A stretch of 64,000 nucleotides of DNA from positions 1,381 to 65,380 of the forward strand of contig JAFVWP010000137.1 of the NCBI GenBank assembly GCA_017501565.1, given 5' to 3'. Positions 33,001 to 56,349 of the stretch are shown piece after piece. The position numbers and the translations under genes were made by a program. The stretch's first letter is position 1. Each line of letters opens with the position of its first letter. The notes beneath the pieces were generated by a model. That model saw nothing but the letters and a program-made list of their open reading frames with translations. It made no database searches and was not told where the DNA came from. This DNA is from Elusimicrobiaceae bacterium (lineage in GTDB: Bacteria; Elusimicrobiota; Elusimicrobia; Elusimicrobiales; Elusimicrobiaceae).

Positions 33001-35610
33001 ATGAAAAGCACCGAAATAAGAAGCGGTTTTTTACAATTTTTCAATTCCAAAGGGTTGCCGGTTAAACCTTCCAGCTCTTTAATCCCCCATTCGGATCCGA
33101 CTTTGCTGTTTACTTCGGCGGGTATGGTCCAATTTAAGGCCAATTTTTTAGGCATTGATAAATCTTTAAAAAATGCTGCCACTTGCCAAAAATGCGTCCG
33201 CACCACCGATATTGACAGCGTGGGTTTCACCGAACGCCACCTGACGTTTTTTGAAATGTTGGGAAACTTTTCTTTCGGTGATTATTTTAAAAATGAAGCA
33301 ATTGCCTGGGCTTGGGAGTATTTAACCAAGGTCTTGCAAATCCCCGCGGAAAAACTTTCTGTCAGTATTTACAAAGGCGGCATTGCACCGCGCGACGAAG
33401 AAGCCTACAATGCCTGGCTGAAATATGTGCCTGCGGAACGGATTTTTGAATTGGGCGAAGCCGATAACTTTTGGACCATGGGTCCTACCGGTCCTTGCGG
33501 GCCTTGCTCCGAAATTTACTATGATTTTGGCGATAAAGGTTGCACCAATCCCCATTGTGATATTACGTGCAACTGCGGCCGTTATGTGGAAATTTGGAAC
33601 TTGGTCTTTACCCAATTTGACCGCCAAGAAGACGGCACCTTAAATGCCTTGCCCCATAAAAACATTGATACAGGTATGGGTTTAGAACGCTTGTGTATGG
33701 CCATGCAAAATGCCCGCAACGTTTTTGAAACCGATTTGTTCACTCCGCTTACCCGTCAAGCGCAAAAAGATTTGGGCATTGAAGGAAAAACAAAAGAAGA
33801 AATTTCCGCTTTGCGTATTATTGCCGACCACGTGCGTAGCTCTTCTTTCTTAATTGCGGAAGGGATTTTGCCCTCCAACGAAGGCCGCGGGTATATCTTG
33901 CGCCGTTTGATTCGCCGCGCCGCCCGCTACGGCAAATTGATGGGCAATGACAAACCCTATTTATATACCTTGGTACCGGTCGTGCAAGGTATTTTCGGCG
34001 GCTTGTACCCTGAAATTGATAAAAATGCCCAACATATTCAAGACGTACTTAAACAAGAAGAAAGCACTTTCTTAAAAACATTGGTCACCGGCGAAGAAAA
34101 ATTGGCCCAGCTCTTGGCTACTTGCGGTAAAACCTTGCCCGGGGCGGAAGCCTTCCACCTGCACGAAACCTATGGTTTTCCGCTAGAGCTTACCAAAGAA
34201 ATCGCCGCGGCTAAAAATGTGGCGGTAGATGAAGAAGGTTACGAAAAAGCCAAAGAATCTGCCCAAGAAAAAAGCCGTTCTTATGCTGATGAATTTTCTA
34301 AGGAAAAGGCCGTCATCATGCAAAAGGTGGAAAACAGCTACCCCGCCACCTTGTTTGTAGGGTATGAACAATTAACCGCTCAAGCCAAAGTATTGGCCTT
34401 ATTAAACGATAAATTTGAATTTGTAGACAGCTTAAACGGACAAGGTTATGCTGTTTTCAACCAAACCCCATTCTATGCCGAATCCGGCGGTCAGGTGGGC
34501 GATAAAGGGGTCGTGTGCCACAACGGACAAGAAACCGCACACATCACCGATACCCAAAAACCCTTGGGCAAAGTATATTTGCACAAAGTAAACGGCGCTT
34601 TACAAACGGGTGACGAAGTAACTTTATCGGTAGATGTCGCCCGCCGTAAACGTTGCATGGCCAACCACAGCGCCATTCACTTGGTCAATGCGGCTTTGCG
34701 TCAGGTATTTGGCAACAGCGTACACCAAAGCGGTTCTTTTGTATCTGAAGAACGCTTCCGCTTTGACTATACACTCTCCAGAACGCCGAGCGCCGAAGAA
34801 TTGAAAAAGGCTTGGAAAATAGCCAACGAAGCGGCCGAAGCGGCTTTGCCGGTGTATTGCCAAGAACGTCCTTTGGCCGATGCAGACCGCTTGGGTGCCG
34901 TGACCCTTTTGGGAGAAACCTATGCAGACCCGGCCCGCTTTGTATTGATGGGCGGCAGCTTTGAAAACCCCCAAGAAAAATACAGCTTGGAATTGTGCGG
35001 TGGGACACACGTAAAAAACACCGCAGAAGTCATGAGTATTTTGGTGCTGAAAGAAGGCTCCGTTTCTGCCGGGGTACGCCGTATTGAAGGCGTAGCCGGA
35101 TATGCCGCGTTGGACTATTTGAAAAATGTCCATGCACAAGCCGAAGAATTGGCCGCGCGCCTGGTGGTGCCCGCCAAAGACGTTTTCCAACGCGTAAATA
35201 CCATCATGGACGAATTGAAAGAAGTGAAAAAACGCTTCACGCAATTTAGAGAGAAAACATTAGCCGCCGGCGGGGTAAACGAAACAACCTTTACCATGCA
35301 AAACGGCACTACAGTAGTGTTGCGTAATGCCGAAGGAGCCGAGCCGAAAGAATTGCGTAATATTGCCGATACAATTGCCCAAAAACACCAACAAGCCTTA
35401 ATCATCGTAACGTGCGACAAAGAAGGCAAACGCTCTTTTGTGGTAAAAATGGTAGGCAAGCTGCCCAATACCGATGCCGTATCCGTAGCCAAAATGATAG
35501 CCGCTGACTTAAACGGACGCGCAGGCGGGCGGGCGGATTTTGCCCAAGGCGGCGGAGAAGCCAAACGCCCGATGTTGGACTTAATCGGCTCCATGAAAGA
35601 AAGTTTATAA
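33001..35610 (+). CDS. alaS: Alanine-tRNA ligase
   Basis: DPTLLFTSAGM, HLTFFEMLGNF, DTGMGLER; editing motifs HxxxH and ELCGGTH; C-Ala GGRADFAQGG. Confidence 0.98.
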   Translation: MKSTEIRSGFLQFFNSKGLPVKPSSSLIPHSDPTLLFTSAGMVQFKANFLGIDKSLKNAATCQKCVRTTDIDSVGFTERHLTFFEMLGNFSFGDYFKNEAIAWAWEYLTKVLQIPAEKLSVSIYKGGIAPRDEEAYNAWLKYVPAERIFELGEADNFWTMGPTGPCGPCSEIYYDFGDKGCTNPHCDITCNCGRYVEIWNLVFTQFDRQEDGTLNALPHKNIDTGMGLERLCMAMQNARNVFETDLFTPLTRQAQKDLGIEGKTKEEISALRIIADHVRSSSFLIAEGILPSNEGRGYILRRLIRRAARYGKLMGNDKPYLYTLVPVVQGIFGGLYPEIDKNAQHIQDVLKQEESTFLKTLVTGEEKLAQLLATCGKTLPGAEAFHLHETYGFPLELTKEIAAAKNVAVDEEGYEKAKESAQEKSRSYADEFSKEKAVIMQKVENSYPATLFVGYEQLTAQAKVLALLNDKFEFVDSLNGQGYAVFNQTPFYAESGGQVGDKGVVCHNGQETAHITDTQKPLGKVYLHKVNGALQTGDEVTLSVDVARRKRCMANHSAIHLVNAALRQVFGNSVHQSGSFVSEERFRFDYTLSRTPSAEELKKAWKIANEAAEAALPVYCQERPLADADRLGAVTLLGETYADPARFVLMGGSFENPQEKYSLELCGGTHVKNTAEVMSILVLKEGSVSAGVRRIEGVAGYAALDYLKNVHAQAEELAARLVVPAKDVFQRVNTIMDELKEVKKRFTQFREKTLAAGGVNETTFTMQNGTTVVLRNAEGAEPKELRNIADTIAQKHQQALIIVTCDKEGKRSFVVKMVGKLPNTDAVSVAKMIAADLNGRAGGRADFAQGGGEAKRPMLDLIGSMKESL

Positions 35611-35612
35611 TC

Positions 35613-35638
35613 AAAACCCCGGGTAACCGGGGTTTTTT
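35613..35638 (+). terminator. Intrinsic terminator after alaS
   Basis: AAAACCCCGG-GTAA-CCGGGGTTTTTT. Confidence 0.85.
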
Positions 35639-35761
35639 AGGGCCCAGAAAAACATAGGTCCAAATTCCCACAAAAATAGGTCCAAGGACCCTAGAAACAG
35701 ATATAGAGAAAGTCTATACTATAAGTGTAGAAGAAGTAAAAACAAAAAGGAGAACAATTTT

Positions 35762-36328
35762 ATGAAAAAAATGGCTTTATTGTTGGTACTAGCTTTTGTT
35801 TTACCCGCGGTAGCTTCTGCTTATGAATTTCCCTATGGCCGCGAAGGCAAAATTATGGCTTCTGTTGAAAATCTTATGAAAGAAGCGGACAAAAAAAATA
35901 AAGAACAACTTCAAAAGGCTCAAGAAGATGCTAAAAAAGCCGAAGAAGAAGCGAAAGCAAAAGAAAAAATGAGAATCACCGCTCAACAAGAAGCCCAAAA
36001 AGCAACGGAAGCTTTGCTTGCTTTGCAAGAAGCTTACCCTGAATATGCCGAAGAAGTGGCAAGATTCTCTCGCATTCATACTTACTTTGTAGGATTTGCT
36101 GATGGAAAAAATGCAAAAGACAGAAAAGAAGCCTTTGGCAATATCTTTATGCAATTAGAACATTTTTATAGCTGTCTGGAAGATTTGCCGGAAGAAGTGT
36201 CCAAACAGGTTTACGAAATTATGAACCACCAATATTGGATTCAATTTTCCGAAGACTCTTACAGCTTAAGAGGTTTAGGTCCTGCGGCAAAACGCGAAAC
36301 CGGTGTTTTTGATAGTGATTATTTCTAA
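35762..36328 (+). CDS. Secreted helical hypothetical protein (paralogue of 59100..59684)
   Basis: Signal peptide ending ASA; K/E/A-rich coiled coil; SD AGGAG. Confidence 0.75.
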   Translation: MKKMALLLVLAFVLPAVASAYEFPYGREGKIMASVENLMKEADKKNKEQLQKAQEDAKKAEEEAKAKEKMRITAQQEAQKATEALLALQEAYPEYAEEVARFSRIHTYFVGFADGKNAKDRKEAFGNIFMQLEHFYSCLEDLPEEVSKQVYEIMNHQYWIQFSEDSYSLRGLGPAAKRETGVFDSDYF

Positions 36329-36341
36329 AAAGTTGTTTTTT

Positions 36342-36370
36342 AAAAGCCCCGCATTTTGCGGGGCTTTTTT
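36342..36370. terminator. Bidirectional terminator marking the end of the polysaccharide locus
   Basis: AAAAGCCCCGCA-TTT-TGCGGGGCTTTT between convergent genes. Confidence 0.85.
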
Positions 36371-36377
36371 ATTGGAT

Positions 36378-37436
36378 TTACAAAAGGGATAAAAAAGTTT
36401 CCGCGCTGATTTTTAGACGTTTTTCATCAAAATTTTCTATCACCTTTCCGCCCCAGGCCCACAGCATATCCAAGTGTGGGGTCGGTACCTGTAAGATTTC
36501 CGCAATGCAGTGAAGCATAGCCAAACCGAAACAAAAATCTTCCGTAAAATAGCGGTTTGCAAAATCCGGCACAAAGCGGTCGGTCCCCTGTTTTTTCATA
36601 GGGGCTTTGATGCCTTGAAAGGCTTGGATAGAGCGAATTTTGTTCGTCAAAGCAGCCGCGTCTTGGCTTTCGTAATAGGTTAAAAGCGGGGGAACAGGGC
36701 TTAATTTTGCCGGATTCGCTCTCATAACTGCCTGAAACTCGGCATCGCACGCCACCAACAGCAAAGAACTTTCTAAATCCCAATCTTCATAAAACAAAAT
36801 TTCTTTTTCATAAGGACGCTGCGAAGAAAAGCGGTGAAACAAAGAGTATAGGCGGCTGGTGTGTAAAATAGGATTGCTGTTGGTTAAACAGGTCTGCAAA
36901 AAATGCGGCAACAGCACTACGGGCGTGGCAAACATTTCTTCCAGCGTTTCTGCTAATGCTTGTCCCGCCGCATGATGCAAGGTAGCCACCGCTAATTCTT
37001 TTTTATATCCCAACAAACAAGCACTACGTCCGTACTCTTTCACACGGGCAATAAAAGGCACCCGTTGAAAAGCAAATAAAGGGTTTTGGTCTCCCAAAAT
37101 TTCATGTGCTAAAAAGAAAAATCCGCTACTGCCCACCACACACCCCACTTGCGTCTGTTTAGACAAATGCGGTTTAATCCGGCGCAAAGCATCGGCGATG
37201 CAATAGCCGGGAAGGCAAAGCAATAGCATATCGGCATTTTTTACGATGGAAGGATCTTGCGAAATATGAAATAAATCTCCCCGCAAAACAGCGCCCCCGG
37301 GCGTATATATTTGCAGTGTTTTTTGCCATTTTTCCGCAGAAGAAGTGAGCAAAGAAACCTGATAGTCTCTATGCGCTAAAAAACCGCCGATGACATGCCC
37401 TAAATGGCCGCCGCCGCAAATGCAAATATGTTTCAT
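36378..37436 (-). CDS. NAD/NADP-dependent opine (octopine/nopaline) dehydrogenase family
   Basis: Rossmann ICGGGHLG; TNSNPILH, FYEDW and RYFTEDFCFGL motifs. Confidence 0.85.
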   Translation of the reverse strand: MKHICICGGGHLGHVIGGFLAHRDYQVSLLTSSAEKWQKTLQIYTPGGAVLRGDLFHISQDPSIVKNADMLLLCLPGYCIADALRRIKPHLSKQTQVGCVVGSSGFFFLAHEILGDQNPLFAFQRVPFIARVKEYGRSACLLGYKKELAVATLHHAAGQALAETLEEMFATPVVLLPHFLQTCLTNSNPILHTSRLYSLFHRFSSQRPYEKEILFYEDWDLESSLLLVACDAEFQAVMRANPAKLSPVPPLLTYYESQDAAALTNKIRSIQAFQGIKAPMKKQGTDRFVPDFANRYFTEDFCFGLAMLHCIAEILQVPTPHLDMLWAWGGKVIENFDEKRLKISAETFLSLL

Positions 37437-37438
37437 GA

Positions 37439-39229
37439 TTATAATGCTTCAATTAGCGCCGCATTGTCGGCTCTGTTTCGGATCGCAATGCGAATATAGT
37501 TCTTTTGCGCAAAGCCTTTTTTAGCGGAACAATCTTTAATAAAAATTTTCCGTTTCAAAAGTTCTTCTGCCAAGGCCGTCGCTGTTTTGGGCGGCAAAAC
37601 TTCGCACAAAAAATAATTCGCTTGCGAAGGATATACCCGCAAATAGGAAATCTTTTTTAGTTGCTGATAAAAAGTCTCCCGCTCTTGCGCAAAGAGCTGA
37701 CAAGCATTTTTATAATCGGCTTCATACTTGTGGTAAATTTGCAAAAAGAACTCGGCAAACGAGTTAATATTCCAAATAGATAACCGACGGCGCAAATCGT
37801 CCATCAACGCTGTATCTGCACTTGCGGCAATCCCTAAACGAAGCCCCGGTACACCATAAGATTTGGAAATACTTTTTAAAATAATCATCTGCGGGTAGCG
37901 GACTAAAATATCGTTTTTCAGCAAAGAGCTTTCCGCTCCTTTTTCCGCAAAATCCACAAAAGACTCATCTAAAACTAAACGGACTTGTTTAGCCCGGCAC
38001 CAATCCAACAAAGTCAACAAATCTTCTTTTCCGATAAAATTGCCGGACGGATTATCCGGATTAATCAGTAAAAGTGAAGATATGGCTTTGTCTTCAAAAT
38101 AAGCCATCACATCTTTTGCTGTATAAGAAAAACCCGGAGTTTGCGGGGTCCATATCACTAAATCTTGTTGTTTTCGGTTGGGGTACTCTTCAAAAGTAGG
38201 ATAAATCACCCCCATTTTTCCCGGCAATAAAGGCAATAGCTCTTTAATAATTTCCGCCGCGCCGTTTCCGACGGCTAAATACGGAGCATAAACATCAAAG
38301 TTTTTTGCCGCCAGCATACCCATTACACCCGCGCCGGAAGGATATTGGCAGAGTAAATCTTCAAAATTACTTTTTATTTCATCGCACATCTTTTGGGGCG
38401 GGAAATAAGGATTAACCAAATAACAAAAATCTTTCAACCCCGAAAAACGCCAATAGCCGCCGAATCTTTTTTGATAGCGTTGCAAAGTATTTTCTTGGGA
38501 GAAAATCATTTCTGCCGTATCCAAATCTTGCATATCGTCTATTTCATACCAACGCTCCCCTTGCAACGTGCGGGCGCGAATTTGGGCATTTTCAAGAGTA
38601 GATAAAACACGCAACACCTGCTCATAAAAGCCGTTATGCCCCAAAGCCTGGCAATAAGCCTCTAAAAAAGGAACATATTGTTTGGCAGAAAATTCTTTGG
38701 AAAATTTATAAATATTGATGGTTTTATAATAAGAATCTTTTTCGGCAAATTTAAAATTATTTTTAGCAATAAAAGACTCTATTCTTCCGTCATCGGAAAT
38801 TTTTACACAAGTGCCGTCATTCCAATTTTCGTACTTATTTACCAGCGCAATCGTGGGATAAGGGTCTTGCAAAATTTTATCCAACACGGCATCTTCAAAA
38901 ATAAGGTCCGACTCTAAGAGTAAAGTATCTTCTTGGGTCAAATATTCTTTGGCCAGCGCCAAAGAATAAATATTATTGGTTTTATCGTATATCGGGTTTT
39001 CTACAAAAACGATGGGTATATCCAACCCCAAACTTTTTACAAAACAGACCAAAGACTCGGCCTTGTACCCCACCACCAAAACAATGCGAGATAAATTCCG
39101 CCCGGCCAACTGCTTTAACATTCTTTCAATCAGCGTAACGCCGTTTACTTTGACCATACATTTGGTGTTATGCGCGGTCAACTCTTTCAATCTCCGGCCC
39201 AGGCCGGCTGCTAAAATAATGGCTTGCAT
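37439..39229 (-). CDS. Fusion of a LicC-like cytidylyltransferase and a class I/II PLP enzyme (HisC/CobD-like)
   Basis: N-terminus: AIILAAGLGRRL...TKCMV, LLESDL, WYEIDD. C-terminus: GNGAAE, NPDNPSG, DESF.DF, KSISKSYGVPGLRLG. Confidence 0.88.
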   Translation of the reverse strand: MQAIILAAGLGRRLKELTAHNTKCMVKVNGVTLIERMLKQLAGRNLSRIVLVVGYKAESLVCFVKSLGLDIPIVFVENPIYDKTNNIYSLALAKEYLTQEDTLLLESDLIFEDAVLDKILQDPYPTIALVNKYENWNDGTCVKISDDGRIESFIAKNNFKFAEKDSYYKTINIYKFSKEFSAKQYVPFLEAYCQALGHNGFYEQVLRVLSTLENAQIRARTLQGERWYEIDDMQDLDTAEMIFSQENTLQRYQKRFGGYWRFSGLKDFCYLVNPYFPPQKMCDEIKSNFEDLLCQYPSGAGVMGMLAAKNFDVYAPYLAVGNGAAEIIKELLPLLPGKMGVIYPTFEEYPNRKQQDLVIWTPQTPGFSYTAKDVMAYFEDKAISSLLLINPDNPSGNFIGKEDLLTLLDWCRAKQVRLVLDESFVDFAEKGAESSLLKNDILVRYPQMIILKSISKSYGVPGLRLGIAASADTALMDDLRRRLSIWNINSFAEFFLQIYHKYEADYKNACQLFAQERETFYQQLKKISYLRVYPSQANYFLCEVLPPKTATALAEELLKRKIFIKDCSAKKGFAQKNYIRIAIRNRADNAALIEAL

Positions 39230-39249
39230 AGATACTCCAAAAAGAAAAG

Positions 39250-40581
39250 TTAGCTATTTTTACCGATATGTTTGTCTTTTAAAAAAGCTCTTTTGGCTGT
39301 TTTTAAAATAATTTCCACATCTAAAAATAAAGATCTGTTTTTGATATACCACAGGTCATACGCCAAGCGCAAAACCGCATCTTGCAGTTTTTCCTGTGGA
39401 ATTTTTTTGTCTTTATCCAAATCTGCCAACACACAATACGTAGGCGGGGCTTTAAAATTAAGCTGGGCCCACCCGGTCAAACCCGGCTGAATAATATTTC
39501 TGATGCGGTGGCAATAAATATGTTCATTTAAAAACTGATATTCCCTATCCCACACCGGGCGCGGGCCGACAATAGAAATATCCCCCCGCAAAATATTGAT
39601 AAGTTGCGGAATTTCATCTAAACGAAAACGCCTTAAAAAAGCTCCCAAACGGGTCACTTCCTGTGTATGGGGTTTCATGGTTCTAAACTTATAAATGCAA
39701 ATGCGGCGGTCATTTCTGCCCATTCTGACTTGCGGGAAAAAAGGTGGCATTTTATCTGTATATTTAATAAGCCCGTAAATACACAACCCCAACGGAAAAA
39801 AGAGCGGAATAAGCACCAAACTAAAGCCAATATCTATGGCACGTTTTACCAACGGAAAAATGGTACGGCTTTGCCGTTGGGAAAGGCTTTGCACCAGCCA
39901 ATGCGGATTTTGCAAAGCTTCTGCAGAACAGCGGTTAAAAAGCCGCTCGTAAAACTGATAATCCGTTTCCAACAAAACGCCTTTGCAAATTAATTTTTCC
40001 AAAATCAGCGGCCACGCTTGGGGTGCTTTTTCCAAGCAATTATGTGCCATAATCATCAGATCCGGCAAAGGGGTATCCGGGCCAAGGGCTTCTTGCGCCG
40101 TAGCACAACGGCCGGCAATAACATATTCTTTATAAAAGGCCAAATCTTTTTCTATGGCTTTTAGGGTTTCGCTTTGGCCGACAAGCAATATTTTTTGCCG
40201 TACAAAAGCATACGAAGCATAGATTTTTCTGGACAAATAAAGATATGAAAAATAAACGACAAAAACGGAAAGCAAAATCAGCTTTGGCGTGGCAACATTA
40301 AAAAAAGACGTTGTATAATAAATACCGAAGCCGGAAGATAACAAAGAAATGGTAAAAGCCACCAGGATATTTTGATAATTCAGGCGTTGCTTTTTAATAG
40401 TGTTTATATCATAAAAAGAGAAAACCCACAAAATGAGTGTTACCAAACAAAACACCGGCATCAGTACTTGTATGGTAGGCACTAAAACAGAAGGGGAAAA
40501 ATCTTGATAACGCAGGATAACAACCCAGGATATAGTGGCAAAGAAAGAGATAAAATCCAGCAGTAAAAATAAAGCTCTCAT
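39250..40581 (-). CDS. Initiating polyprenyl-phosphate sugar-1-phosphate transferase (WcaJ/WbaP-like)
   Basis: Four N-terminal TMs; KRAIDI, YKFRTM, RLDEIPQLINILRGDISIVGPRP, PGLTGWAQ and DLWYIKNRS. Confidence 0.93.
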   Translation of the reverse strand: MRALFLLLDFISFFATISWVVILRYQDFSPSVLVPTIQVLMPVFCLVTLILWVFSFYDINTIKKQRLNYQNILVAFTISLLSSGFGIYYTTSFFNVATPKLILLSVFVVYFSYLYLSRKIYASYAFVRQKILLVGQSETLKAIEKDLAFYKEYVIAGRCATAQEALGPDTPLPDLMIMAHNCLEKAPQAWPLILEKLICKGVLLETDYQFYERLFNRCSAEALQNPHWLVQSLSQRQSRTIFPLVKRAIDIGFSLVLIPLFFPLGLCIYGLIKYTDKMPPFFPQVRMGRNDRRICIYKFRTMKPHTQEVTRLGAFLRRFRLDEIPQLINILRGDISIVGPRPVWDREYQFLNEHIYCHRIRNIIQPGLTGWAQLNFKAPPTYCVLADLDKDKKIPQEKLQDAVLRLAYDLWYIKNRSLFLDVEIILKTAKRAFLKDKHIGKNS

Positions 40582-41516
40582 AACTCCTTCTGCCCCAAAA
40601 TCATTTTTTGCAGACCCTCTTTTAAGCTGACTTTGGCTTCAAACCCGAGTTTGCAGATTTTACCTGTATCTGCCAAAGAGTGCCGCACATCGGCTTCTCT
40701 TTTAGGCGCAAAACGTATTTTAACAGGCTTACCCGTTACCGCTTCTATCTCTTGGATTAAAGCCAATAAAGACGTGCTCTTTGCACTGCCCACATTATAA
40801 ATTTCGCCCGCTTGGCCGTTTTGCATAACCGCCAGGGTAGCGCGGGCCACGTCTTCTACATAAATAAAATCGCGGGTTTGTTGCCCGTCCCAATCCACCA
40901 CGCATTCTTGCCCTTGCAAGGCTTGCTGTATAAATTTGGCTATCACCGCCGCATAGGCACTTTGCGCATTTTGACGCGGGCCAAATACATTAAAGTATCG
41001 CACCGCCATGGCAGACAGGCCGTACGTTTGATGATAGGTTTGGCATAGTTTTTCCCCGGCAAGCTTGCTAAAAGCGTACGGAGACAAACAAGCCGTAGAA
41101 GCATCTTCGGCATAAGGAGCCTGGGGCTTGTTGCCGTAAACCGCGCTGGAAGAAGCCAACACCACTTTCGGCACGTTTTATTCACACGCGGCTTTTAGGA
41201 CATTCAAAGTGCCTTCTACATTGATTTTTTGGGTCAAGGCCGGCTCTTGCACCGATAGCGGCACAGACACCAAGGCCGCTAAATGAAAAATGCCGTCTAT
41301 CCCCGCTAAAGATTTCTTTAAGGAAGGAAAATCTAAAATATCCCCCTTAATAAATGTAATTTTATCTTGAATTGCGGCTAAGTTTTCCGTTTTGCCTGAT
41401 GAAAGATTATCATAGACCACTACCCCATGCCCTTGGCGAAGCAAAAACGCTGCCAAGTGAGAGCCGATAAATCCGGCACCGCCGGTAATTAAAAAAGTGG
41501 AATTATTCTTTTTCAT
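40578..41516 (-). pseudogene. UDP-hexose/HexNAc 4-epimerase (WbpP-like) with an in-frame TAA at 41178-41180
   Basis: GGAGFIGSH and HLAALVSV upstream of the stop; SSSAVYG, YAFSK and RYFNVFGPRQ downstream. The sequence reads TGT GAA TAA AAC GTG CCG in one frame. Confidence 0.9.
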
Positions 41517-43218
41517 CTGTCTGATAATATTGATAGGATTTTTTGTAATAGCCGTATTTAGAGTAAGACATGGCCTTGGGTTGAAAGTGGCCCAGCACCG
41601 CACCTAAAATCTCAATACCCGCCTTGTTTAATTTATCCATTGCCGCCGCCGCCAAATGCGCATGCGTTTGCCCTTGTTTAAGCACAAATACCGCCCGGGG
41701 AATATAACGTCCCCACAATAAAGTATCCGAAACCGGCACAATGGCGGGGCAATCCACCAACACCTGGTCATAGTTTTTCTCTGCCCACGCAATTAAATCT
41801 GCCAAACGAGCCGAGTTCAAAAGCTCCGCCGGGTTGGGCGGGCGTTGACCCGCCGTCATTACAAAAAGATTTTCTACATCTGGCACTGCTTGCACATTAT
41901 AGCTATATTGGGCTTTTTCCCCTTCTTTTACCCAAAGATTACTCAAGCCTTTATCGGGTGACAGGTGAAACGCTTTATGCAGGCGGGAGCGGCGCAAATC
42001 CCCATCTATTAACAATGTCTTCTTTCCGGTTTGTGCCAGAGCAACAGCCAAATTGGTAGAGAGATGGCTTTTTCCTTCACCTTGCAAAGCACTTGTAATC
42101 AAAATGGGAGCATGCGGAGTTTTGGTTAAAGTAAAAGCCAGCATCGTGCGAATATTGCGCACGTTTTCTGCCAATAAGAAATGTCCTTCTTTCGTCATAA
42201 AGGCATATTCCGGCTCGTTCTTTTTAGTCTTTTCTTTAGGAACAAAACCCAAAAAAGCGACCCGGAGCTTTTTTTCCAAATCTTCGGCATTTTGAATGGT
42301 TTGGTCCAGGTAAGACAACACAAAAACAAACCCCAACCCCAGCAAACCGCCAGCCGACATACCGATTAATAAGTTTAAAAGTTTACGGGGCCGCACCGGG
42401 CTTTCGGCGGCGACGGCGGCATCTACTACGCGGATATTGTTGCCCGAAAATTGGCCGGACAACTCTATTTTAATGCTCTGCACCAAGCGTTTGGTTTCCA
42501 AAGCAATTTTATTTTGTACGGCGGCTAATTGCTTGTTTAAAGAAATCACTTCCGGGTGTTTTTGGGTATATTTGGCCGAGTATTGCGCCTGCTTGTTCAG
42601 CAGTTGCGCTTCTTGCAGTTTTAAGTTTTTAATAAAATCGCTATTAACCACTTGCGGCATGGAGTTCAAGAGCTCTTGGTCATCGCGGCTGCGCTCCGTG
42701 CTTTCCAACGCACGGATTACATCGGCCCCCATAGAAATTCTGTTTTTCACATTGTCTGCCACAAAAGTATCGGCTATTTCATTGGCTATTTCTGCCGATA
42801 AATGGCGGTCATACGCAGTCACGCTCACTTGCACCAAACGCGAACGCAACACAGGCACTACTTTTAATGATTTTAAAAGTTTTTTCCACCCGTAAGGATT
42901 TTTAAATTCATCATATTGGTTCAAATCCATTTTATCGTAAACTCTTTGCAACAGGTTACGGCTTTCCAATAGTTTATATTGCGTGCGGTAATAGTCTTCT
43001 GCCGAAGAAAAAGAAGTATAAGGATTGGTTTCTATTTTGCCCGCTTGCTCTTGATTAATCATCAGCAAAGCCGTAGATTGATAAGCCGGGCGCATAAAAG
43101 TATTGACCAATACCGCCCCCAAAAGCCCCAGCAATACAAAAGCCATCAGCACCCAACTATGTTTGAGTAGAATTTCAAAACATTGTGCAAGATTTATTTC
43201 TTCGTTTTTCTTTTCCAT
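41503..43218 (-). CDS. wzc: Wzc-like polysaccharide co-polymerase/BY-kinase
   Basis: Two TMs; Walker A GEGKS, A' LIDGD, B VLVD; C-terminal Tyr cluster YSKYGYYKKSYQYY. Confidence 0.93.
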   Translation of the reverse strand: MEKKNEEINLAQCFEILLKHSWVLMAFVLLGLLGAVLVNTFMRPAYQSTALLMINQEQAGKIETNPYTSFSSAEDYYRTQYKLLESRNLLQRVYDKMDLNQYDEFKNPYGWKKLLKSLKVVPVLRSRLVQVSVTAYDRHLSAEIANEIADTFVADNVKNRISMGADVIRALESTERSRDDQELLNSMPQVVNSDFIKNLKLQEAQLLNKQAQYSAKYTQKHPEVISLNKQLAAVQNKIALETKRLVQSIKIELSGQFSGNNIRVVDAAVAAESPVRPRKLLNLLIGMSAGGLLGLGFVFVLSYLDQTIQNAEDLEKKLRVAFLGFVPKEKTKKNEPEYAFMTKEGHFLLAENVRNIRTMLAFTLTKTPHAPILITSALQGEGKSHLSTNLAVALAQTGKKTLLIDGDLRRSRLHKAFHLSPDKGLSNLWVKEGEKAQYSYNVQAVPDVENLFVMTAGQRPPNPAELLNSARLADLIAWAEKNYDQVLVDCPAIVPVSDTLLWGRYIPRAVFVLKQGQTHAHLAAAAMDKLNKAGIEILGAVLGHFQPKAMSYSKYGYYKKSYQYYQTDEKE

Positions 43219-43227
43219 ATCCAACCC

Positions 43228-43872
43228 TTAAAACATACTTTGCGGCACAAAAACAATATCGCCCGCTTGCAACACCATATCCAACGCTTTATTGCCTTGC
43301 TTGGTAATTTGGGCAACATCTACGTCCAACGCGGTTTGTTGTCCGTTCTCCATACGCAAAACGCGCACCTTGCTGATAGCGGCCAAATCCGTAAATCCGC
43401 CCACGGAAGTAATTGCTTCCAATAAAGTAAGCGGTTTCTCAGGTAGCAAAGCAAGGGCCGCCGGTTTGGCTACCTGACCCAACACATACACATTGTGATT
43501 GCCATACTCTTTAATCAGCAAAGAAACTTGCGGGTCTTTAATATATTCTTCCAATGCAACCGCCAATACTTTTTCCGCTTGGGAAACGGACAGCCCGGCT
43601 ATTTGAATATTGCCTACCAGCGGATAAGTAATGGTACCGCCCGTGGATATGCGCAACGTGCGCAACATATCCTTTTCCATAAATACCTGTATTTCCAGCA
43701 AATCGCCCGGTTGCAGTTTATATTCCGCGCTGGTCTTTAATTGCGTCAAATTGTCGTTTAAAATTGTTTCGGTGGGCACTCCGGCAGGGATTTCCTGGCG
43801 CGGATCAGTGGCGGCACAAGCCCCCAAAAAGCCCAAAAGCAGAAAAAAGGAAAAATATTTGTATAGGTTCAT
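43228..43872 (-). CDS. wza: Short OPX/Wza-like export lipoprotein (Poly_export plus one SLBB)
   Basis: Lipobox LGAC, YKLQPGD, GTITYPLVG, VYVLGQV and LLEAI..GG; ends at GDIVFVPQSMF with no OM helix. Confidence 0.9.
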   Translation of the reverse strand: MNLYKYFSFFLLLGFLGACAATDPRQEIPAGVPTETILNDNLTQLKTSAEYKLQPGDLLEIQVFMEKDMLRTLRISTGGTITYPLVGNIQIAGLSVSQAEKVLAVALEEYIKDPQVSLLIKEYGNHNVYVLGQVAKPAALALLPEKPLTLLEAITSVGGFTDLAAISKVRVLRMENGQQTALDVDVAQITKQGNKALDMVLQAGDIVFVPQSMF

Positions 43873-43906
43873 TTTTATATTTTACTATATATCTTCCTAT
43901 ACAAAA

Positions 43907-45535
43907 CTAATCTAAAGTATTTATAAAAAGGGCAGATAATTCTTTTTCTTTAGGGTATTTTTTTAAGTATTTTTCAGCCAATGCGTGTGCTTGTTGGCGG
44001 TATTGTTTTTGTTGGGCAAGCGATATTTGGTTATCCAAACTTTTATGATAAAGTGAAAGCCCTAATTCCAACGCATAACGCGGAGACGGATAATAAGAAA
44101 GAACTTTTTGTTGATAGGCAATCTTTTGCTCAAATTTAAACCCCTTACCCAAGCGCCCCAACTGCCACGCAATCGTTTTGCACACCGGGACGTATAAACA
44201 AACCGCTAACAACAATCCCATAGCCGCTAAAACAAGCGGACGCACAGACTTCCTTTGGCCTTCTTCGCGCCAGAAAGTTTCCCCGCATAAAAGACCCGAT
44301 AAGATAAAAAAGAATACGCCACAAGCGGGAATATAAAAGTGAAAATCCACCATCGTCGCACACACAAAACCGGTTAAACCGCAAAAAATGCCCCCCATCA
44401 ATAATGCCTTGTGGCGGGGAAGAACAAAAAGACGTTTCAAAAGCCTTAAAATCCCCATTAGCAGTAAGAGCAGTAAAGGCACAGCGCCCACAAAACCCAC
44501 GCCGAGCAACAACTCTAATCCGTCGCTATGCAAACGCGCCACATATAGGTGCAGGGGTTTATCCATATAAACAGGAAGTACCACCGGCAAACTGCCTACG
44601 CCAAAACCAAAAAGGGGACGCTCTTTAAAAGCTTTTCCGGCCGCCTGATAGAGCTGCACACGGGTATCTGCCGAAAAGGACGAATTTCTTTTGGCAAAGG
44701 TTTGAATGGCGTTTTCGGCCTGAAGCCCGCCTATCAACAGCACTCCAAAAAATAACACAATCCCCAACACCGCACCTATTTTCTGCCAAGTCTTTTTAAG
44801 TAGTAAACAAACCGCTAAAACAGAAAAGCAAAACCCTGATACCCAAAAGGCCAACAACACCCCTCTGGAACGGCTAAACACCGCACTAAAGCAAAGCAGT
44901 AGCGACAAAAGCAACCAGACACTTTGTTTAGCATAAAAATCGGCCCGGCGGTTTTGCAAGGCATATTGGCGGCGCTGTGTTAAAAAACTCCCCCACAAAG
45001 CCAAAGCCGTAAAACCGCCCAAAAATAAAAAGATACCGCCGTTATTTCGGTTCAAAAAGGGTCCAACGCCGTCTTTAAGCCCGCTAAAAAATTTTAAATA
45101 TCCCCCGGGCCAAACCATGTGCAGCAGTGCCACCGCCCCGCAAATGCCACACAATCCCAGCAAAAAAAGCCGGGTTTCTTTCAGATTGCGGCACAAGCAG
45201 GCCGACAATACAAAAACGCTCCACCACAGCACAAATAAACCGGCATGCTCCAGCCCAAACAAAGGCATTACGCTAGAAGGATAAAAAGGCGGATTTTCCA
45301 ATAATGTAGTGGGAAAACACGTCTGCAACAGGGTATATAAGATAAGAAAGGCAAAGAAAAAAGAGAGTATTTTACCGACCGGTGAAAAATAAATTTTCCG
45401 TTGGCAAAAGTAGCTCACAAACAAGATTGAAAACAACACCTGATACGTACTTAAAGTCCAGGCTTGCGTACCGCCAAAAGCAAACACCAGAAAGGAAAAT
45501 AAAAACAAGAAAAAACTTTTATAAAACAGGCTCAT
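43907..45535 (-). CDS. O-antigen ligase/oligosaccharyltransferase-like membrane protein (Wzy_C)
   Basis: Many TMs; GPFLNRN, SRSRG, FGFGVGS and LHSDGLE motifs. The start position is uncertain. Confidence 0.75.
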   Translation of the reverse strand: MSLFYKSFFLFLFSFLVFAFGGTQAWTLSTYQVLFSILFVSYFCQRKIYFSPVGKILSFFFAFLILYTLLQTCFPTTLLENPPFYPSSVMPLFGLEHAGLFVLWWSVFVLSACLCRNLKETRLFLLGLCGICGAVALLHMVWPGGYLKFFSGLKDGVGPFLNRNNGGIFLFLGGFTALALWGSFLTQRRQYALQNRRADFYAKQSVWLLLSLLLCFSAVFSRSRGVLLAFWVSGFCFSVLAVCLLLKKTWQKIGAVLGIVLFFGVLLIGGLQAENAIQTFAKRNSSFSADTRVQLYQAAGKAFKERPLFGFGVGSLPVVLPVYMDKPLHLYVARLHSDGLELLLGVGFVGAVPLLLLLLMGILRLLKRLFVLPRHKALLMGGIFCGLTGFVCATMVDFHFYIPACGVFFFILSGLLCGETFWREEGQRKSVRPLVLAAMGLLLAVCLYVPVCKTIAWQLGRLGKGFKFEQKIAYQQKVLSYYPSPRYALELGLSLYHKSLDNQISLAQQKQYRQQAHALAEKYLKKYPKEKELSALFINTLD

Positions 45536-45574
45536 ACCTTTCATTCTATAAAATTTGATATATTGGAATAAGTT

Positions 45575-46039
45575 ATGAAAATATGTTTTGTCTGCCAAGC
45601 CAACATTTGCCGAAGTTTTGTAGCGCAACAATTGCTCCAACACCTTTTAACGCAAAATAAAAAGCCGAATATAGAGATTATTTCCCGCGGGATTTATACT
45701 TCACCCGCTTATGCGGTGCCGGATAAAATCAAAAATTTTTTGGCCCAAAAACAAATTTTGCCACAAGCTCACACACCTGTATTGCTCTCTAAGCAAGATT
45801 TGGCCCAAAGCGATTTGGTATTAGTCATGACGCAAGAACAATGGGATTTTGTATTTAATCAAGCCCCGCAATTTACCGACAAATATCACTTATTGGCTGA
45901 ATATGCCCTGGGGCAAGAGCAAGACATAGAAGACCCCATTTCTTTGACAGGCAAAGCGTTTGACCGGGTCATGACCCAATTAGAAAAGGCCGTCTTGGAA
46001 GTTTACCGAAAAATTACCCGTCCCGATACCGCCCTATAA
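45575..46039 (+). CDS. wzb: Low-molecular-weight protein tyrosine phosphatase (Wzb-like)
   Basis: CQANICRS (CX5R) and DIEDP. Confidence 0.9.
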   Translation: MKICFVCQANICRSFVAQQLLQHLLTQNKKPNIEIISRGIYTSPAYAVPDKIKNFLAQKQILPQAHTPVLLSKQDLAQSDLVLVMTQEQWDFVFNQAPQFTDKYHLLAEYALGQEQDIEDPISLTGKAFDRVMTQLEKAVLEVYRKITRPDTAL

Positions 46040-46936
46040 GCGCTCTGTCGCCGCATCAAAAGCAATGACAAAATGACGTTCCCTTTTTTCGGGTGGGGGC
46101 ACTTGCATATAGTCTTTTCCGTAAATAGAGCTTAAATAAATTTTGGGTTGCTGGGGCAAAACTACTTCTACCCCTTCAAACAGCCCCTTCTTACCGGGCA
46201 AATAAATATCTTTGGAAAGGACATTATTAAAATATCTGCCGCAAGCAATGGTCATCAGATGGCTTTTGCGGCCCGACATCATTTTATCGGCCCAATTACA
46301 CCAGGTCCGGTGCGGAATGACCGACAAACCTTTGCCAAACATTTTGCGAATAAAAAAGGCCGATTTTGTTTTGCGGCTTTGGCTCATAAAAAGAGCCATT
46401 TCCGCGCTGGGGTATTGCGCGTAAAAAACAGACACCGCTATTTGGCATAACAAATTACAAAACGCGCCTTTTATCCAACGTAAAAATTTATTTTCAGGCG
46501 CATAGTCTAACGGAAAAATATCTATATAAATGCCTTTAGGAAAAGAAGTTTGCGTATCGGATATTTCCAAAAACAAAGTGCCTTTTTTATAGATTTTGGT
46601 GAAATTATTTTTAGATTCTTTGCCGGTATTAGGGGCTGTAAACTCGTATTTATCGCCTAATTCCCGCTCAAAAATAGTAAAAAATTTAGGCAAATCTTTT
46701 CGCAAAACCAACAGGTCCAAATCGTCGTCCCAAGGGATAAAGCCCCCATGGCGCACCGCCCCCAAACAAGAGCCAAAGCCCAACATATACGTTATATGAT
46801 GTTTTTCAAAAACACGCATCAAGTCTTGCAACATTTCAAGCAATGCTTTTTTCAGTTGTGCTTTTTCTTCTTCCGTTAAAGCATGCAATTGTGTGCTTTT
46901 GCGTGCCAAAACATTCATATCGGCCGTTGTGCCCAT
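46034..46936 (-). CDS. licD: LicD-family CDP-alcohol phosphotransferase
   Basis: GSCLGAVRHGGFIPWDDDLD, IDIFPLD and YL..IYG.DYMQVPP. Confidence 0.92.
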   Translation of the reverse strand: MGTTADMNVLARKSTQLHALTEEEKAQLKKALLEMLQDLMRVFEKHHITYMLGFGSCLGAVRHGGFIPWDDDLDLLVLRKDLPKFFTIFERELGDKYEFTAPNTGKESKNNFTKIYKKGTLFLEISDTQTSFPKGIYIDIFPLDYAPENKFLRWIKGAFCNLLCQIAVSVFYAQYPSAEMALFMSQSRKTKSAFFIRKMFGKGLSVIPHRTWCNWADKMMSGRKSHLMTIACGRYFNNVLSKDIYLPGKKGLFEGVEVVLPQQPKIYLSSIYGKDYMQVPPPEKRERHFVIAFDAATERL

Positions 46937-46949
46937 ATTTTTCCCCTTT

Positions 46950-48155
46950 CTATTTTCCGTCAAAAAATCTTTGGTATATTTTTTTAACCAGCGTAACACA
47001 AAAAGGCTTTATTCCCAAAAGTTCGCGCAATAAAGCGTTCAAAGGCTCTTTTCGCCATCGCACAAAAAATTCGGACCGCTTAGCATGCGGTATGCAAGAG
47101 CGGAAAATAGCCGGATTATGCAACATAGCCTGGCGGGCGTCTATCTCCATCGTTTTTATCCCGCTTTTACGCACATATTCGGCCCCTTTAGGCGTATTTA
47201 CCCCCAAGAAAGAAACTCCTTCGTGTTTATTCTTAGGAGTTAAAATATCCGGCCACTCGCCCCACAAATCCCCCAGCGTTACATCGGCCATGCGTTTTTC
47301 CAAATCTTTAGACAGACACAAGTGGCAACTCGGCCGCAGAAAAAGCCCCGCCAAATATCCGCGCAGAAAAAGATTGTGAAACACAAAAGCAGGCGTCATG
47401 GAAAAGAAAGAAAAAATTTTCTCAGCCAAGGTTTGTTTTTGGCTGTGCGCTACCCATTGCCTGCCGACACGAAAACCTAAAAAATACCGGCTCCAACCGC
47501 CGTCTTTTTTACGAAAATTAATCTCTTGCGGAAAAGTGGACGGGAAATTTTCCCGCAAAAATCTTTGCCACACGCCCGTAGAGGCCACACCCAAGCAAAT
47601 AAGTTGTGCCGTTAACAAATGCGCGTAATCTTTATTTAAATAATTACGCAGACCGGCTATTTGGCAAGGAGTGCCCACAAACAGCACACGCCGCCCTTGC
47701 TCCAAAAATTCGTGCGCCTGCCGATAGCTTTGACCAATATCGCTTTGCACATATTTGGAACGGCGCAATTTATCCAAGTCTGACTCGTTATCCACCCATT
47801 GATGAAACACGCGGTATCTTTCATCAAAACAGGCCCCAAACACTACCCCTTTTTCCTTTAATATTTCTTCTGCCAGGGCCGAAAAAACACCCCCCGAAGA
47901 ACTTTTGAGTAAAATTTCCATTTGGCCATGTCGGGCCGCATACACTTGCTGTTGGACAAACATATCGGGCTTGCGCAAAGAAGGGCAGACCGAACGGCAA
48001 AGCCCGCAACCGATGCACCGGGCATGATCTATATGCGGATACAAAAAGCCTTCTCCGTCCGCTTCCATAGAAATACACCCATGCGTGCAAATATTTACGC
48101 ACGCCTGGCAACCGCTGCATTTGTTTTTATCTACTACCGGGATCATCTGTTCCAT
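46950..48155 (-). CDS. FrhB-like (F420 hydrogenase beta-like) oxidoreductase with two 4Fe-4S motifs
   Basis: CSGCQACVNIC, CIGCGLCRSVCP, SSSGG, SKYVQS, GTPCQ, RPSCHLC and DVTLGDLWG. Confidence 0.88.
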   Translation of the reverse strand: MEQMIPVVDKNKCSGCQACVNICTHGCISMEADGEGFLYPHIDHARCIGCGLCRSVCPSLRKPDMFVQQQVYAARHGQMEILLKSSSGGVFSALAEEILKEKGVVFGACFDERYRVFHQWVDNESDLDKLRRSKYVQSDIGQSYRQAHEFLEQGRRVLFVGTPCQIAGLRNYLNKDYAHLLTAQLICLGVASTGVWQRFLRENFPSTFPQEINFRKKDGGWSRYFLGFRVGRQWVAHSQKQTLAEKIFSFFSMTPAFVFHNLFLRGYLAGLFLRPSCHLCLSKDLEKRMADVTLGDLWGEWPDILTPKNKHEGVSFLGVNTPKGAEYVRKSGIKTMEIDARQAMLHNPAIFRSCIPHAKRSEFFVRWRKEPLNALLRELLGIKPFCVTLVKKIYQRFFDGK

Positions 48156-49648: not shown

Positions 49649-49654
49649 ACCCTT

Positions 49655-50755: not shown

Positions 50756-50783
50756 TTAAATGGCTCCCTGTTGCTTAAAAATC

Positions 50784-55522: not shown

Positions 55523-55524
55523 TT

Positions 55525-56349
55525 TTAACGCAGAACTTTTCGGTAAAATAAACCGCGCCACGAATTGGGCAATAATACTTGCACGCAGAAACGTACCCCT
55601 ACGTTGTGCCCATGCGTCAGCCAGGAAATAAGCCCCAACTGCCGCAAACGGCGGCTCAAGGCGTAATTGCTTTTGAAATATTTCCACCCGCCGCGGCGGG
55701 CATACATATTTTCATCTACGCGGGCATTGACTAATATGTTAGGCAAATTTGCCATCGGGTATTTTGCCGCCGCCAAACGCGCCCACAAATAATAATCTTC
55801 CAACAAATAAAAAGGCTGATAACCGCCCACAGCCGTAACAGCGCTTTTCTTAAACATAACGCTCATGTGATTAAAAGGGCAACGCTTTTTGAGAAATTTT
55901 AAAATATCAGCCGGTTTTTCCGGTACGCGGCGCACCGATAGGGGCGTTAAAGTTGCGCTATCTGTCTCCTGCACCCAGCCGCCCAATACGGCTATATCCG
56001 TATTTTGTTTCAAAAAAGATATTTGTTGGGCAAAACGTCCGGGCAAGGAAATATCATCGGCGTCCATGCGCGCTACCCAGGGGCACGAGCAGACCGAAAG
56101 ACCTTTATTCAGTGCTGCGCCCAACCCTACATTTTTGTCTAAAGGCAGTAAGCGTATCAAAGGGTTTTTCTGCGTAAAATCTGTTAAAACTTTTTGCAAA
56201 TCCGCCCCGATAGGGCCGTCGGTCACCACCACGATTTCCTTTGGCAAAAGGCTGTTTTGCAAAACACTATCCAAAGCTTGGGCCAGCCATAGGGGGCGGT
56301 CCTTAGCGTAGACAGACATCAAAACAGAAAAAGAAAAATCCTGTTTCAT
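55525..56349 (-). CDS. GT2-family glycosyltransferase (AmsE-like)
   Basis: FSVLMSVY, VVTDG, NVGLG.AL, ARMDADD, FNHMSV and EDY.LW. Confidence 0.92.
   Translation of the reverse strand: MKQDFSFSVLMSVYAKDRPLWLAQALDSVLQNSLLPKEIVVVTDGPIGADLQKVLTDFTQKNPLIRLLPLDKNVGLGAALNKGLSVCSCPWVARMDADDISLPGRFAQQISFLKQNTDIAVLGGWVQETDSATLTPLSVRRVPEKPADILKFLKKRCPFNHMSVMFKKSAVTAVGGYQPFYLLEDYYLWARLAAAKYPMANLPNILVNARVDENMYARRGGWKYFKSNYALSRRLRQLGLISWLTHGHNVGVRFCVQVLLPNSWRGLFYRKVLR

Follow-up and report, generated by a model that had tools for sequence, protein, structure and literature searches.

Fusion, opine dehydrogenase and LicD genes

We studied two abutting genes within a stretch of 64,000 nucleotides (hereafter the window) from an Elusimicrobiaceae bacterium (assembly GCA_017501565.1, contig JAFVWP010000137.1, positions 1,381 to 65,380). 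They are the last genes of a same-strand Wzx/Wzy-type polysaccharide locus that spans 36378-56349. The first encodes a fusion of a LicC-like nucleotidyltransferase with a CobD-like enzyme of the pyridoxal phosphate (PLP) type (hereafter the fusion), the second a protein of the opine dehydrogenase (ODH) family. An earlier note on this DNA had read the locus end in the same way, and both the open reading frames (ORFs) and their domain assignments agree with it. The ATG of the ODH gene comes immediately after the stop codon of the fusion gene, with both ORFs on the minus strand. Coordinates are collected in Table 1.

Residues 1-184 of the fusion match the Pfam families NTP_transf_3 (E 6e-11) and NTP_transferase (E 1e-9). 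Within the PDB, the N-terminal half is best matched by LicC (1jyk; E 4e-13, residues 2-247), followed by the PntC fusion 6pd1. The translation also contains AAGLGRRL, i.e., the N-terminal G-x-G-x-R-L signature of LicC-type cytidylyltransferases. That is, LicC-type fold, signature and LicC similarity are all present in this domain. Its specificity for cytidine triphosphate (CTP) and for a phospho-amino-alcohol substrate we infer from its partners, i.e., from LicD and TagF-like enzymes that use alcohols activated with cytidine diphosphate (CDP).

The C-terminal half of the fusion (Aminotran_1_2 at residues 365-596, E 7e-29) scores best with the NCBIfam model of CobD (TIGR01140, 177.1 bits), followed by HisC (TIGR01141, 144 bits), where neither score reaches the trusted cut-off. 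Its PDB matches include the decarboxylases 6oux and 1lc5, and its PLP-lysine motif SISKSYGVPGLRLG aligns with SLTKFYAIPGLRLG of CobD 1lc5 and SLSKDFGIAGVRLG of 6oux. The latter is presumably the serine-phosphate decarboxylase SMUL_1544 of Sulfurospirillum. The Schiff-base lysine is present and is retained in 10/12 family members examined. A profile built from 12 PLP domains of the family ranks 6oux first (199.6 bits), the annotated HisC 3ftb second (158.9 bits), then CobD 1lc5 (134.3 bits) and E. coli HisC (71.7 bits). By profile score the domain is thus nearer to characterised decarboxylases than to E. coli HisC, with 3ftb scoring between 6oux and CobD. We predict a decarboxylase of O-phospho-L-serine or O-phospho-L-threonine.

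Divergent fusions (42-46% identity) are found at L127:5042-6859 and L128:5047-6858. Their PLP lysine is replaced (K to E or T) and they have no reductase partner. Loci L130, L132 and L135 belong to the same divergent group, in which the lysine was inspected for L127 and L128 only. The PLP domain of such fusions is probably inactive, and their nucleotidyltransferase half may take another substrate.

The ODH matches Octopine_DH (PF02317) at residues 176-332 (E 9e-32, 110.6 bits vs. a cut-off of 30). Its N-terminal part is an ApbA-type Rossmann domain with the motif ICICGGGHLGH, and the GGGxxG glycines (G8, G9, G10, G13) are unchanged in 15 homologues. Octopine dehydrogenase (OcDH) of Pecten is matched with E 7.5e-30 (3c7a), where H192/R295/D300 align with H212/R324/D329 of OcDH. 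This triad, catalytic in OcDH, is also unchanged in the 15 homologues. Identity to characterised opine dehydrogenases is about 25-30%. The basic residues R125, R195 (three residues past the catalytic His) and K266 are unchanged within the ODH clade, while T, I and A occupy the corresponding positions of Pecten OcDH; we regard this as a weak lead toward an anionic substrate. The protein is predicted to condense an amine reductively with a 2-oxo acid, at the expense of NAD(P)H.

The closest relatives of the window's cassette proteins are from Bacteroidales (50-60% identity), and ODH is found in only 2/227 genomes of the window organism's order. Given this rarity and these relatives, the cassette was probably gained horizontally. 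The best matches by themselves would point to a Bacteroidales source, but named members of the 90% clusters of the organism's MutS and WecB place the genome in Elusimicrobiaceae ('Candidatus Avelusimicrobium'). Within the order, just one further genome has the pair (G113, from the same family), with fusion and ODH in convergent orientation (L093:6100-9009). Its ODH is 34% identical to that of the window, which suggests a separate acquisition.

The third gene in question encodes a LicD-family phosphotransferase. It matches PF04991 over profile positions 2-227 of 227 (E 3.4e-42, 145.5 bits vs. 22.6) and shows the acidic DxD-type motifs WDDDLD and DIFPLD. Its frame starts with ATG at 46936, and a longer GTG-started frame extends to 46999. 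Placement in the same locus and start codon are both as the earlier note had them.

Linkage across genomes

A scan of species-representative genomes with the ODH identified 561 stretches that encode a relative, and the following counts refer to the best 80 of these 561. The 80 loci stem from Prevotella, Phocaeicola, Bacteroides, Alloprevotella, Paraprevotella, Odoribacter, Muribaculum, Paludibacteraceae, Fluviicola and Fibrobacter. ORFs in related loci were called mechanically, and many of the genomes are metagenome-assembled genomes (MAGs). A fusion of about 600 aa is encoded within 300 bp of ODH in 75/80 loci; of the remaining 5, 3 are truncated at a contig end. Nearly always, the fusion gene lies directly upstream of ODH in the same orientation. 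In 16/80 loci, the C-terminus of ODH continues into LicD, and LicD is either fused or within 3 kb in 68/80. Many Octopine_DH+LicD fusion proteins of about 598 aa were also found in a separate protein search.

Two additional samples were chosen independently of ODH, i.e., 401 Bacteroidales and 401 Bacteroidaceae genomes. For Bacteroidales, all 6 strong ODH matches abut one of the 12 fusion copies. Within Bacteroidaceae, the fusion is present in 89 genomes (22%) and ODH (E<=1e-50) in 54 (13%). Here, 51/54 ODH genes lie on the same contig as and at most 2.5 kb from a fusion gene, 48 of these within about 200 bp. The respective genome-level table (53 with both, 1 with ODH only, 36 with the fusion only, 311 with neither) yields a Fisher p of 8e-41, uncorrected for phylogeny. 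Gene linkage and fusions extend over three phyla.

The earlier note had expected the trio to travel together in surface-glycan loci and had named a lack of co-occurrence across genomes as the outcome that would speak against its proposal. The linkage counts (75/80, 51/54 and 6/6 for ODH and fusion, 68/80 for LicD) clearly bear out the expectation. Fusion, ODH and LicD form a widely conserved, apparently uncharacterised cassette. Public annotations are generic, i.e., 'aminotransferase class I/II-fold enzyme', 'octopine/nopaline dehydrogenase family protein' or 'ornithine cyclodeaminase'.

In two genomes, the fusion is found on another contig, in a capsule-type locus (ODH loci L158:2408-5580, contig C70 of G1020, and L159, contig C79 of G986). 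The ODH gene of L158 is directly upstream of metG.

Exchange of reductase and amine supply

Among the Bacteroidaceae fusion copies, 33 are without an adjacent ODH. For 17 of them, the exact ODH slot after the fusion is taken by a gene (about 315 aa) of the ornithine cyclodeaminase (OCD)/mu-crystallin family; 3 are directly adjacent to LicD and 13 have neither neighbour. The Bacteroidales sample provides OCD genes in L086-L088 and a LicD adjoining the fusion in L089. The OCD clade comprises 5471 clusters at E<=1e-30, annotated solely as ornithine cyclodeaminase.

Other loci have no reductase at all. Fusion and LicD occur in this way, with the PLP lysine intact, in L089, L138 and L156. Phocaeicola vulgatus harbours a second fusion copy in another glycan locus (L085:7539-10525, contig C35 of G227), followed by a TagF-like CDP-glycerol-type phosphotransferase and again without reductase. 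These arrangements suggest a core role for the fusion and an optional one for the reductase, i.e., that the fusion alone can supply a LicD or TagF-type enzyme. Since it suffices for such loci, a CDP-amino-alcohol fits as its product.

Of 143 loci with the CobD-type fusion, 90 carry ODH and 30 carry OCD; no locus combines the two. On the fusion tree, the partner types are interspersed (27 changes vs. about 37 with shuffled labels). ODH and OCD families share no sequence relationship, and opine-forming enzymes are found in both: tauropine and strombine dehydrogenases are members of the OCD superfamily (PMC4141209), as is an enzyme that alkylaminates alpha-keto acids (PMC8446579). Because either of two unrelated opine-forming families was recruited to the slot, the analogy argues that the step there is the reduction of an imine between amine and keto acid. 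We dropped the idea of OCD as a strictly isofunctional replacement of ODH, since three loci of the 2-aminoethylphosphonate (AEP) type described below (L162, L163, L170) carry both. What we state is that OCD and ODH take up the same position and exclude each other in CobD-type loci.

One sampled genome (G942) has ODH but no CobD-type fusion. Its locus L143 encodes an AEP pathway with phosphoenolpyruvate (PEP) mutase in front of ODH (Table 1). The AEP:pyruvate transaminase of L143 is split into two overlapping ORFs, which match residues 5-179 and 197-357 of 1m32, probably due to a frameshift. A metagenome scan with the L143 ODH identified at least 10 more contigs on which this gene order recurs with an unbroken transaminase; LicD often comes next. 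PEP mutase is found in the loci L143 and L162-L176 of this sister ODH clade. The pathway's product AEP is the C-P isostere of ethanolamine phosphate. That is, the ODH clade stands behind two routes that are not homologous but both lead to a 2-aminoethyl-P compound, namely the CobD-type fusion and the AEP pathway.

Because the sister clade is fed by the AEP pathway, this analogy makes ethanolamine phosphate a likelier amine of the CobD-type route than serinol phosphate or aminopropanol phosphate. The earlier note had offered both phosphoserine to ethanolamine phosphate and dihydroxyacetone phosphate (DHAP) to serinol phosphate. The former option has gained from the wiring of the sister clade and from 6oux and CobD outscoring HisC, while the latter is disfavoured.

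Proposed pathway and alternatives

We propose that fusion, ODH and LicD constitute a four-activity cassette that decorates a Wzx/Wzy-made polysaccharide with an N-(carboxyalkyl)-aminoethyl phosphate ('phospho-opine'). We assign this reading a probability of about 0.6. A PLP enzyme requires a primary amine, and its step must therefore come first, before N-alkylation: the CobD-like domain would decarboxylate O-phospho-L-serine to ethanolamine phosphate. The fused LicC-like domain would then convert ethanolamine phosphate and CTP to CDP-ethanolamine. Here, the unmodified amino-alcohol phosphate is most likely the activated compound, since nucleotidyltransferase and PLP domain form one protein, and loci without a reductase use this protein as well.

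In the third step, ODH would condense the amine with a 2-oxo acid, using NAD(P)H, to CDP-N-(1-carboxyalkyl)ethanolamine. Pyruvate is our guess for the keto acid; it would give a carboxyethyl group as on the Proteus O14 antigen. In the cytoplasm and prior to Wzx flipping, LicD would finally attach the phospho-substituent to a hydroxyl group on a sugar of the lipid-linked repeat unit. Alternatively, ODH may alkylate the glycan-bound amine just after LicD transfer. Either way, ODH and LicD probably act consecutively, because they are often fused. Transfer of phosphoethanolamine from CDP-ethanolamine is known for the LicD-family protein Mf1 (PMC11982090). The candidate route of the earlier note (amine phosphate from a PLP enzyme, CTP activation, opine-type N-carboxyalkylation and LicD transfer) is supported by the linkage, the ODH-LicD fusions, the OCD replacement in the ODH slot and the AEP sister clade, and no result of the analysis contradicts it.

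Several points weigh against the cassette proposal. The set of 80 loci was picked by ODH similarity and its members are relatives that are not independent; ODH is located away from the fusion in a few genomes (G1020, G986). Within the window, LicD is 7 kb from fusion and ODH, and a 390-bp gap (45644-46033) splits it from their gene block. With 177.1 bits, the PLP domain does not reach the TIGR01140 equivalog cut-off (290.55), which is why we name it CobD-like and not CobD. It is a subfamily separate from CobD and may instead have aminotransferase activity (serinol phosphate). The tandem of OCD and ODH in three AEP-type loci implies that the reductases need not always be equivalent. A stop codon within the epimerase frame of the locus (see below) may mean that the locus is not fully functional in this strain, or may be a MAG error. 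Finally, the searched open-access literature offers neither biochemical nor structural data on any cassette member, and no biochemical description of the route, in line with the earlier note.

The same cassette would handle another amine if its PLP domain were an aminotransferase like HisC or Cj1437 (DHAP to serinol phosphate) or a threonine-phosphate decarboxylase (giving 1-amino-2-propanol phosphate), such that an N-carboxyalkyl serinol or aminopropanol phosphate results. This is unlikely given that the decarboxylases 6oux (199.6 bits) and CobD (134 bits) outscore E. coli HisC (72 bits) and that AEP, which feeds the sister ODH clade, is isosteric with ethanolamine phosphate and not with serinol phosphate. 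It nevertheless draws on the domain's place in the HisC/CobD superfamily under the trusted cut-offs of both models, on 3ftb as second-best profile match and on Cj1437, which shows such chemistry in capsule loci (PMC11800397). Less likely still is that ODH or OCD acts as an ordinary dehydrogenase for a keto or amino precursor, e.g., in CDP-glycerol oxidation toward CDP-serinol or in an SbnB-like oxidative amine release. The ODH N-terminal domain does resemble the Rossmann domains of glycerol-3-phosphate and ketopantoate dehydrogenases, dehydrogenase-aminotransferase pairs are common in amino-sugar routes, and SbnB is in the OCD family. However, the His/Arg/Asp triad of opine dehydrogenases is unchanged, and AEP-type loci have a complete amine before ODH. 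Furthermore, the reductase-free loci with fusion, LicD and intact PLP lysine (L089, L138, L156) indicate that the reductase is an extra and does not supply a precursor.

Free opines and staphylopine-type metallophores are known products of ODH relatives. The polymer might thus carry plain phosphoethanolamine or phosphocholine, which LicC/LicD systems classically install in the latter case, with an unrelated ODH from free opine or metallophore metabolism placed there by coincidence; that LicD is not adjacent to ODH in the window would agree. We consider this very improbable and close to refuted by the gene linkage, i.e., the 51/54 and 75/80 adjacencies, the ODH-LicD fusions and the start-stop abutment with the fusion gene. 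In addition, there is no choline kinase in the genome, no methyltransferase in the locus and no transporter or metallophore gene near ODH.

Comparison with known systems

The Lic phosphocholine pathway (LicA, LicB, LicC, LicD; Streptococcus pneumoniae, Haemophilus influenzae) shares LicC-like and LicD-family enzymes with the cassette as well as a phosphodiester-linked amino alcohol from a CDP donor. In contrast, the cassette comes without a choline kinase in the genome, and its phospho-amine is predicted to be made de novo by the fused PLP domain. Furthermore, an extra dehydrogenase would tailor the amine, such that the product would be anionic or zwitterionic and not a quaternary amine. That is, the cassette would work like a Lic-type CDP-alcohol decoration minus kinase and uptake, plus de novo amine phosphate and opine-type tailoring.

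The decarboxylases CobD, SMUL_1544 and C. jejuni Cj1436 share fold and PLP-lysine motif with the cassette domain and provide the closest solved structures. Cj1436 makes ethanolamine phosphate for the capsule decoration of C. jejuni (PMC11800397); its conversion of phosphoserine, cited as precedent in the earlier note, and the respective statements on Cj1437 were checked against this source. The cassette domain differs in its fusion to a nucleotidyltransferase and in scoring under the CobD equivalog cut-off. Moreover, the C. jejuni product is amide-linked and then dephosphorylated, whereas that of the cassette is predicted to remain a phosphodiester.

PntC systems (e.g., the PntC-AEPT fusion of Treponema denticola, 6pd1/6pd2) likewise have a nucleotidyltransferase fused or next to a PLP enzyme making a 2-aminoethyl-P compound, and a LicD/TagF-like transfer to glycans. 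The sister ODH clade resides in exactly such loci. However, the window organism's genome is without PEP mutase, and the PLP domain of the cassette is of the class I/II CobD-like type and not a class V AEP transaminase. The described PntC route is not known to include an ODH step.

With characterised opine dehydrogenases (Pecten octopine dehydrogenase, Arthrobacter CENDH, Agrobacterium octopine/nopaline synthases and staphylopine-type CntM), the ODH shares family, Rossmann motif, His/Arg/Asp triad and predicted chemistry. Unlike theirs, its predicted amine is an amino alcohol that bears a phosphate or CDP and not an amino acid, and the cassette ODH is often fused to LicD.

A chemical precedent is N-[(R)-1-carboxyethyl]ethanolamine phosphate (R-Cet-EtnP) on the O-antigen of Proteus mirabilis O14, which the earlier note had named and which is listed in the supplement of PMC5560731. 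The O14 gene cluster (KY710694) is described as simple, and neither this paper nor its supplements mention opine, LicD, cytidylyltransferase or decarboxylase (PMC5560731). R-Cet-EtnP is exactly the predicted type of substituent if the keto acid is pyruvate, and serves as chemical precedent only. Enterobacterial phosphoethanolamine is usually added in the periplasm from phosphatidylethanolamine, and the Proteus route may therefore be unrelated to the cassette.

Protein O-glycosylation context in Bacteroidales

In Phocaeicola vulgatus ATCC 8482 (L028), the cassette is framed by metG and wzx on one side and glycosyltransferases on the other (Table 1), with the fusion gene at 8190-9995 and ODH at 9992-11092. 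Bacteroides sp. 224 (L002) has the same metG-wzx-...-glycosyltransferase layout around the cassette, where no Pfam family is recorded for the two ORFs that separate wzx from the fusion. This layout defines the LFG locus, whose products assemble the outer glycan of a general system for the O-glycosylation of proteins (PMC12871550, PMC8698959). By gene order, the context of the cassette in L028 and L002 matches this definition. Among the ODH loci with full flanks, 27/56 have metG within 10 kb, i.e., the LFG locus is the commonest home of the cassette in Bacteroidales and holds about half of the cassettes. The framing of the earlier note, which had spoken of capsule and O-antigen loci, was thus too narrow. 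None of the characterised O-glycans in a review is from a cassette carrier (PMC12871550). Phosphodiester-linked substituents exist on O-glycans of Prevotella intermedia (PMC10897501).

Polysaccharide locus and genome context

Table 1. Positions of the genes and domains discussed, for the window and for related loci.
Sequence	Positions	Strand	Feature	Basis
Window	36378-37436	-	ODH family protein, 352 aa; predicted N-carboxyalkylation of aminoethyl phosphate	Pfam Octopine_DH
Window	37439-39229	-	LicC-like/CobD-like fusion gene, 596 aa	
Window	38489-39229	-	N-terminal fusion domain (residues ~1-247): LicC-like nucleotidyl (predicted cytidylyl) transferase	Pfam, PDB, AAGLGRRL
Window	37439-38446	-	C-terminal fusion domain (residues ~262-596 and stop codon): CobD-like fold-type-I PLP enzyme, predicted amino-acid-phosphate decarboxylase	
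Window	39250-40581	-	Initiating polyprenyl-phosphate sugar-phosphate transferase	Bac_transf E 1.7e-46; TIGR03025
Window	40578-41603	-	NAD-dependent sugar epimerase/dehydratase frame	Two ORFs matching N- and C-terminal halves of PF01370
Window	41503-43224	-	Wzc-like chain-length/tyrosine kinase protein	Pfam Wzz/GNVR/CbiA
Window	43228-43872	-	Wza-like exporter	Pfam Poly_export/SLBB
Window	43907-45643	-	Wzy_C-family membrane protein, 578 aa	Pfam Wzy_C
Window	46034-46936	-	LicD-family phosphotransferase; predicted phospho-substituent transfer from CDP donor to repeat unit	Pfam LicD
Window	within 46950-56349	-	FrhB-like Fe-S protein, Wzx flippase, WecB UDP-GlcNAc 2-epimerase, polysaccharide pyruvyl transferase	Pfam/NCBIfam
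Window	within 46950-56349	-	Wzy-like polymerase, weak Glyco_transf_4 (GT4-like) match, GT4 and GT2 glycosyltransferases	Pfam/NCBIfam
L028 (P. vulgatus ATCC 8482)	2662-16025		metG, wzx, acyltransferase, fucosyltransferase-like, fusion, ODH, LicD, ORF without Pfam match, two family-1-type (GT4-like) glycosyltransferases, GT2	
L086	9760-10671		OCD gene in ODH slot	
L087	9790-10734		OCD gene in ODH slot	
L088	9802-10752		OCD gene in ODH slot	
L144	6855-7796		OCD gene in ODH slot (13 more loci carry one)	
L143 (G942)	807-7312		PntC-like nucleotidyltransferase, cytidylyltransferase-like/PEP-mutase fusion, phosphonopyruvate decarboxylase dependent on thiamine pyrophosphate, AEP transaminase, ODH, TagF-like, Wzx, GT2	
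L143, L161-L170, L175, L176			Phosphonate-version loci	

The epimerase frame is broken by a single in-frame TAA (41178-41180; read-through translation ...AACE*NVPKVV...), which reflects a nonsense mutation or else an error of assembly. The locus encodes two distinct membrane proteins of the Wzy_C family (43907-45643 and 51979-53214). A polysaccharide pyruvyl transferase and an FrhB/F420-hydrogenase-like Fe-S protein also share it (46950-48155, 50784-51995); the polymer may also be pyruvylated. A plus-strand hypothetical ORF and alaS are found downstream. A scan of 35500-46200 for promoters and terminators gave no more sites than shuffled sequence and carries no information on operon structure.

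In line with the earlier note, Pfam/NCBIfam annotation of the polysaccharide locus reveals no choline kinase, choline transporter or phosphonate gene. The assembly of the window organism (1.47 Mb, 141 contigs, 92% complete) has no match to choline kinase (LicA, PF01633), PEP mutase (PF13714) or TagF-like proteins (PF04464); the absence of a choline transporter (LicB) refers to the locus, since no genome-wide search was made. The genome encodes one LicD, one ODH and one fusion. It also has a SerC-like gene, which scores below the cut-offs of all SerC models; a supply of phosphoserine is plausible.

Adjoining the locus, a choloylglycine hydrolase family gene (bile-salt-hydrolase-like, E 4e-63) is found at 56459-57643, which fits a gut habitat. 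For 58000-64000 of the window, G+C falls from about 0.45 to 0.28-0.38, with a DUF4143/AAA_14 ATPase (60335-61486) as the sole Pfam match. This region may be foreign DNA.

Significance

Within the open-access subset searched, no paper connects opine dehydrogenase to LicD or to capsular polysaccharide. A search for carboxyethyl, ethanolamine phosphate and O-antigen matched solely a Proteus/Klebsiella review. A review on gut lipopolysaccharides mentions only O-linked carboxyethyl mannose in Odoribacter.

We give even odds to a wider claim, namely that the cassette belongs to a large unrecognised 'phospho-opine' family of glycan decoration. Such a family would combine amine supply by CobD-like enzymes or the AEP pathway, cytidylyl activation, alkylation by ODH or OCD and LicD/TagF-like transfer. 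It would act on capsules and above all on protein O-glycans of gut and rumen Bacteroidales (Phocaeicola vulgatus, Prevotella), and also in Fibrobacter and Elusimicrobia.

If true, two unrelated reductase families were recruited to one tailoring step, and the cassette would be the genetic basis for a substituent of the N-carboxyethyl-ethanolamine phosphate type, for which no published pathway was found in the searched literature. The prediction is open to direct test in a cultured, genetically tractable carrier. Charged or zwitterionic glycan substituents (phosphocholine, phosphoethanolamine, aminoethylphosphonate) influence immune recognition, binding of phages and antibodies, and resistance to cationic peptides. 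In Phocaeicola vulgatus and many Prevotella, the general O-glycan would carry an unreported modification. Hundreds of glycoproteins at the surface and in the periplasm of dominant gut commensals would then present a new charged epitope.

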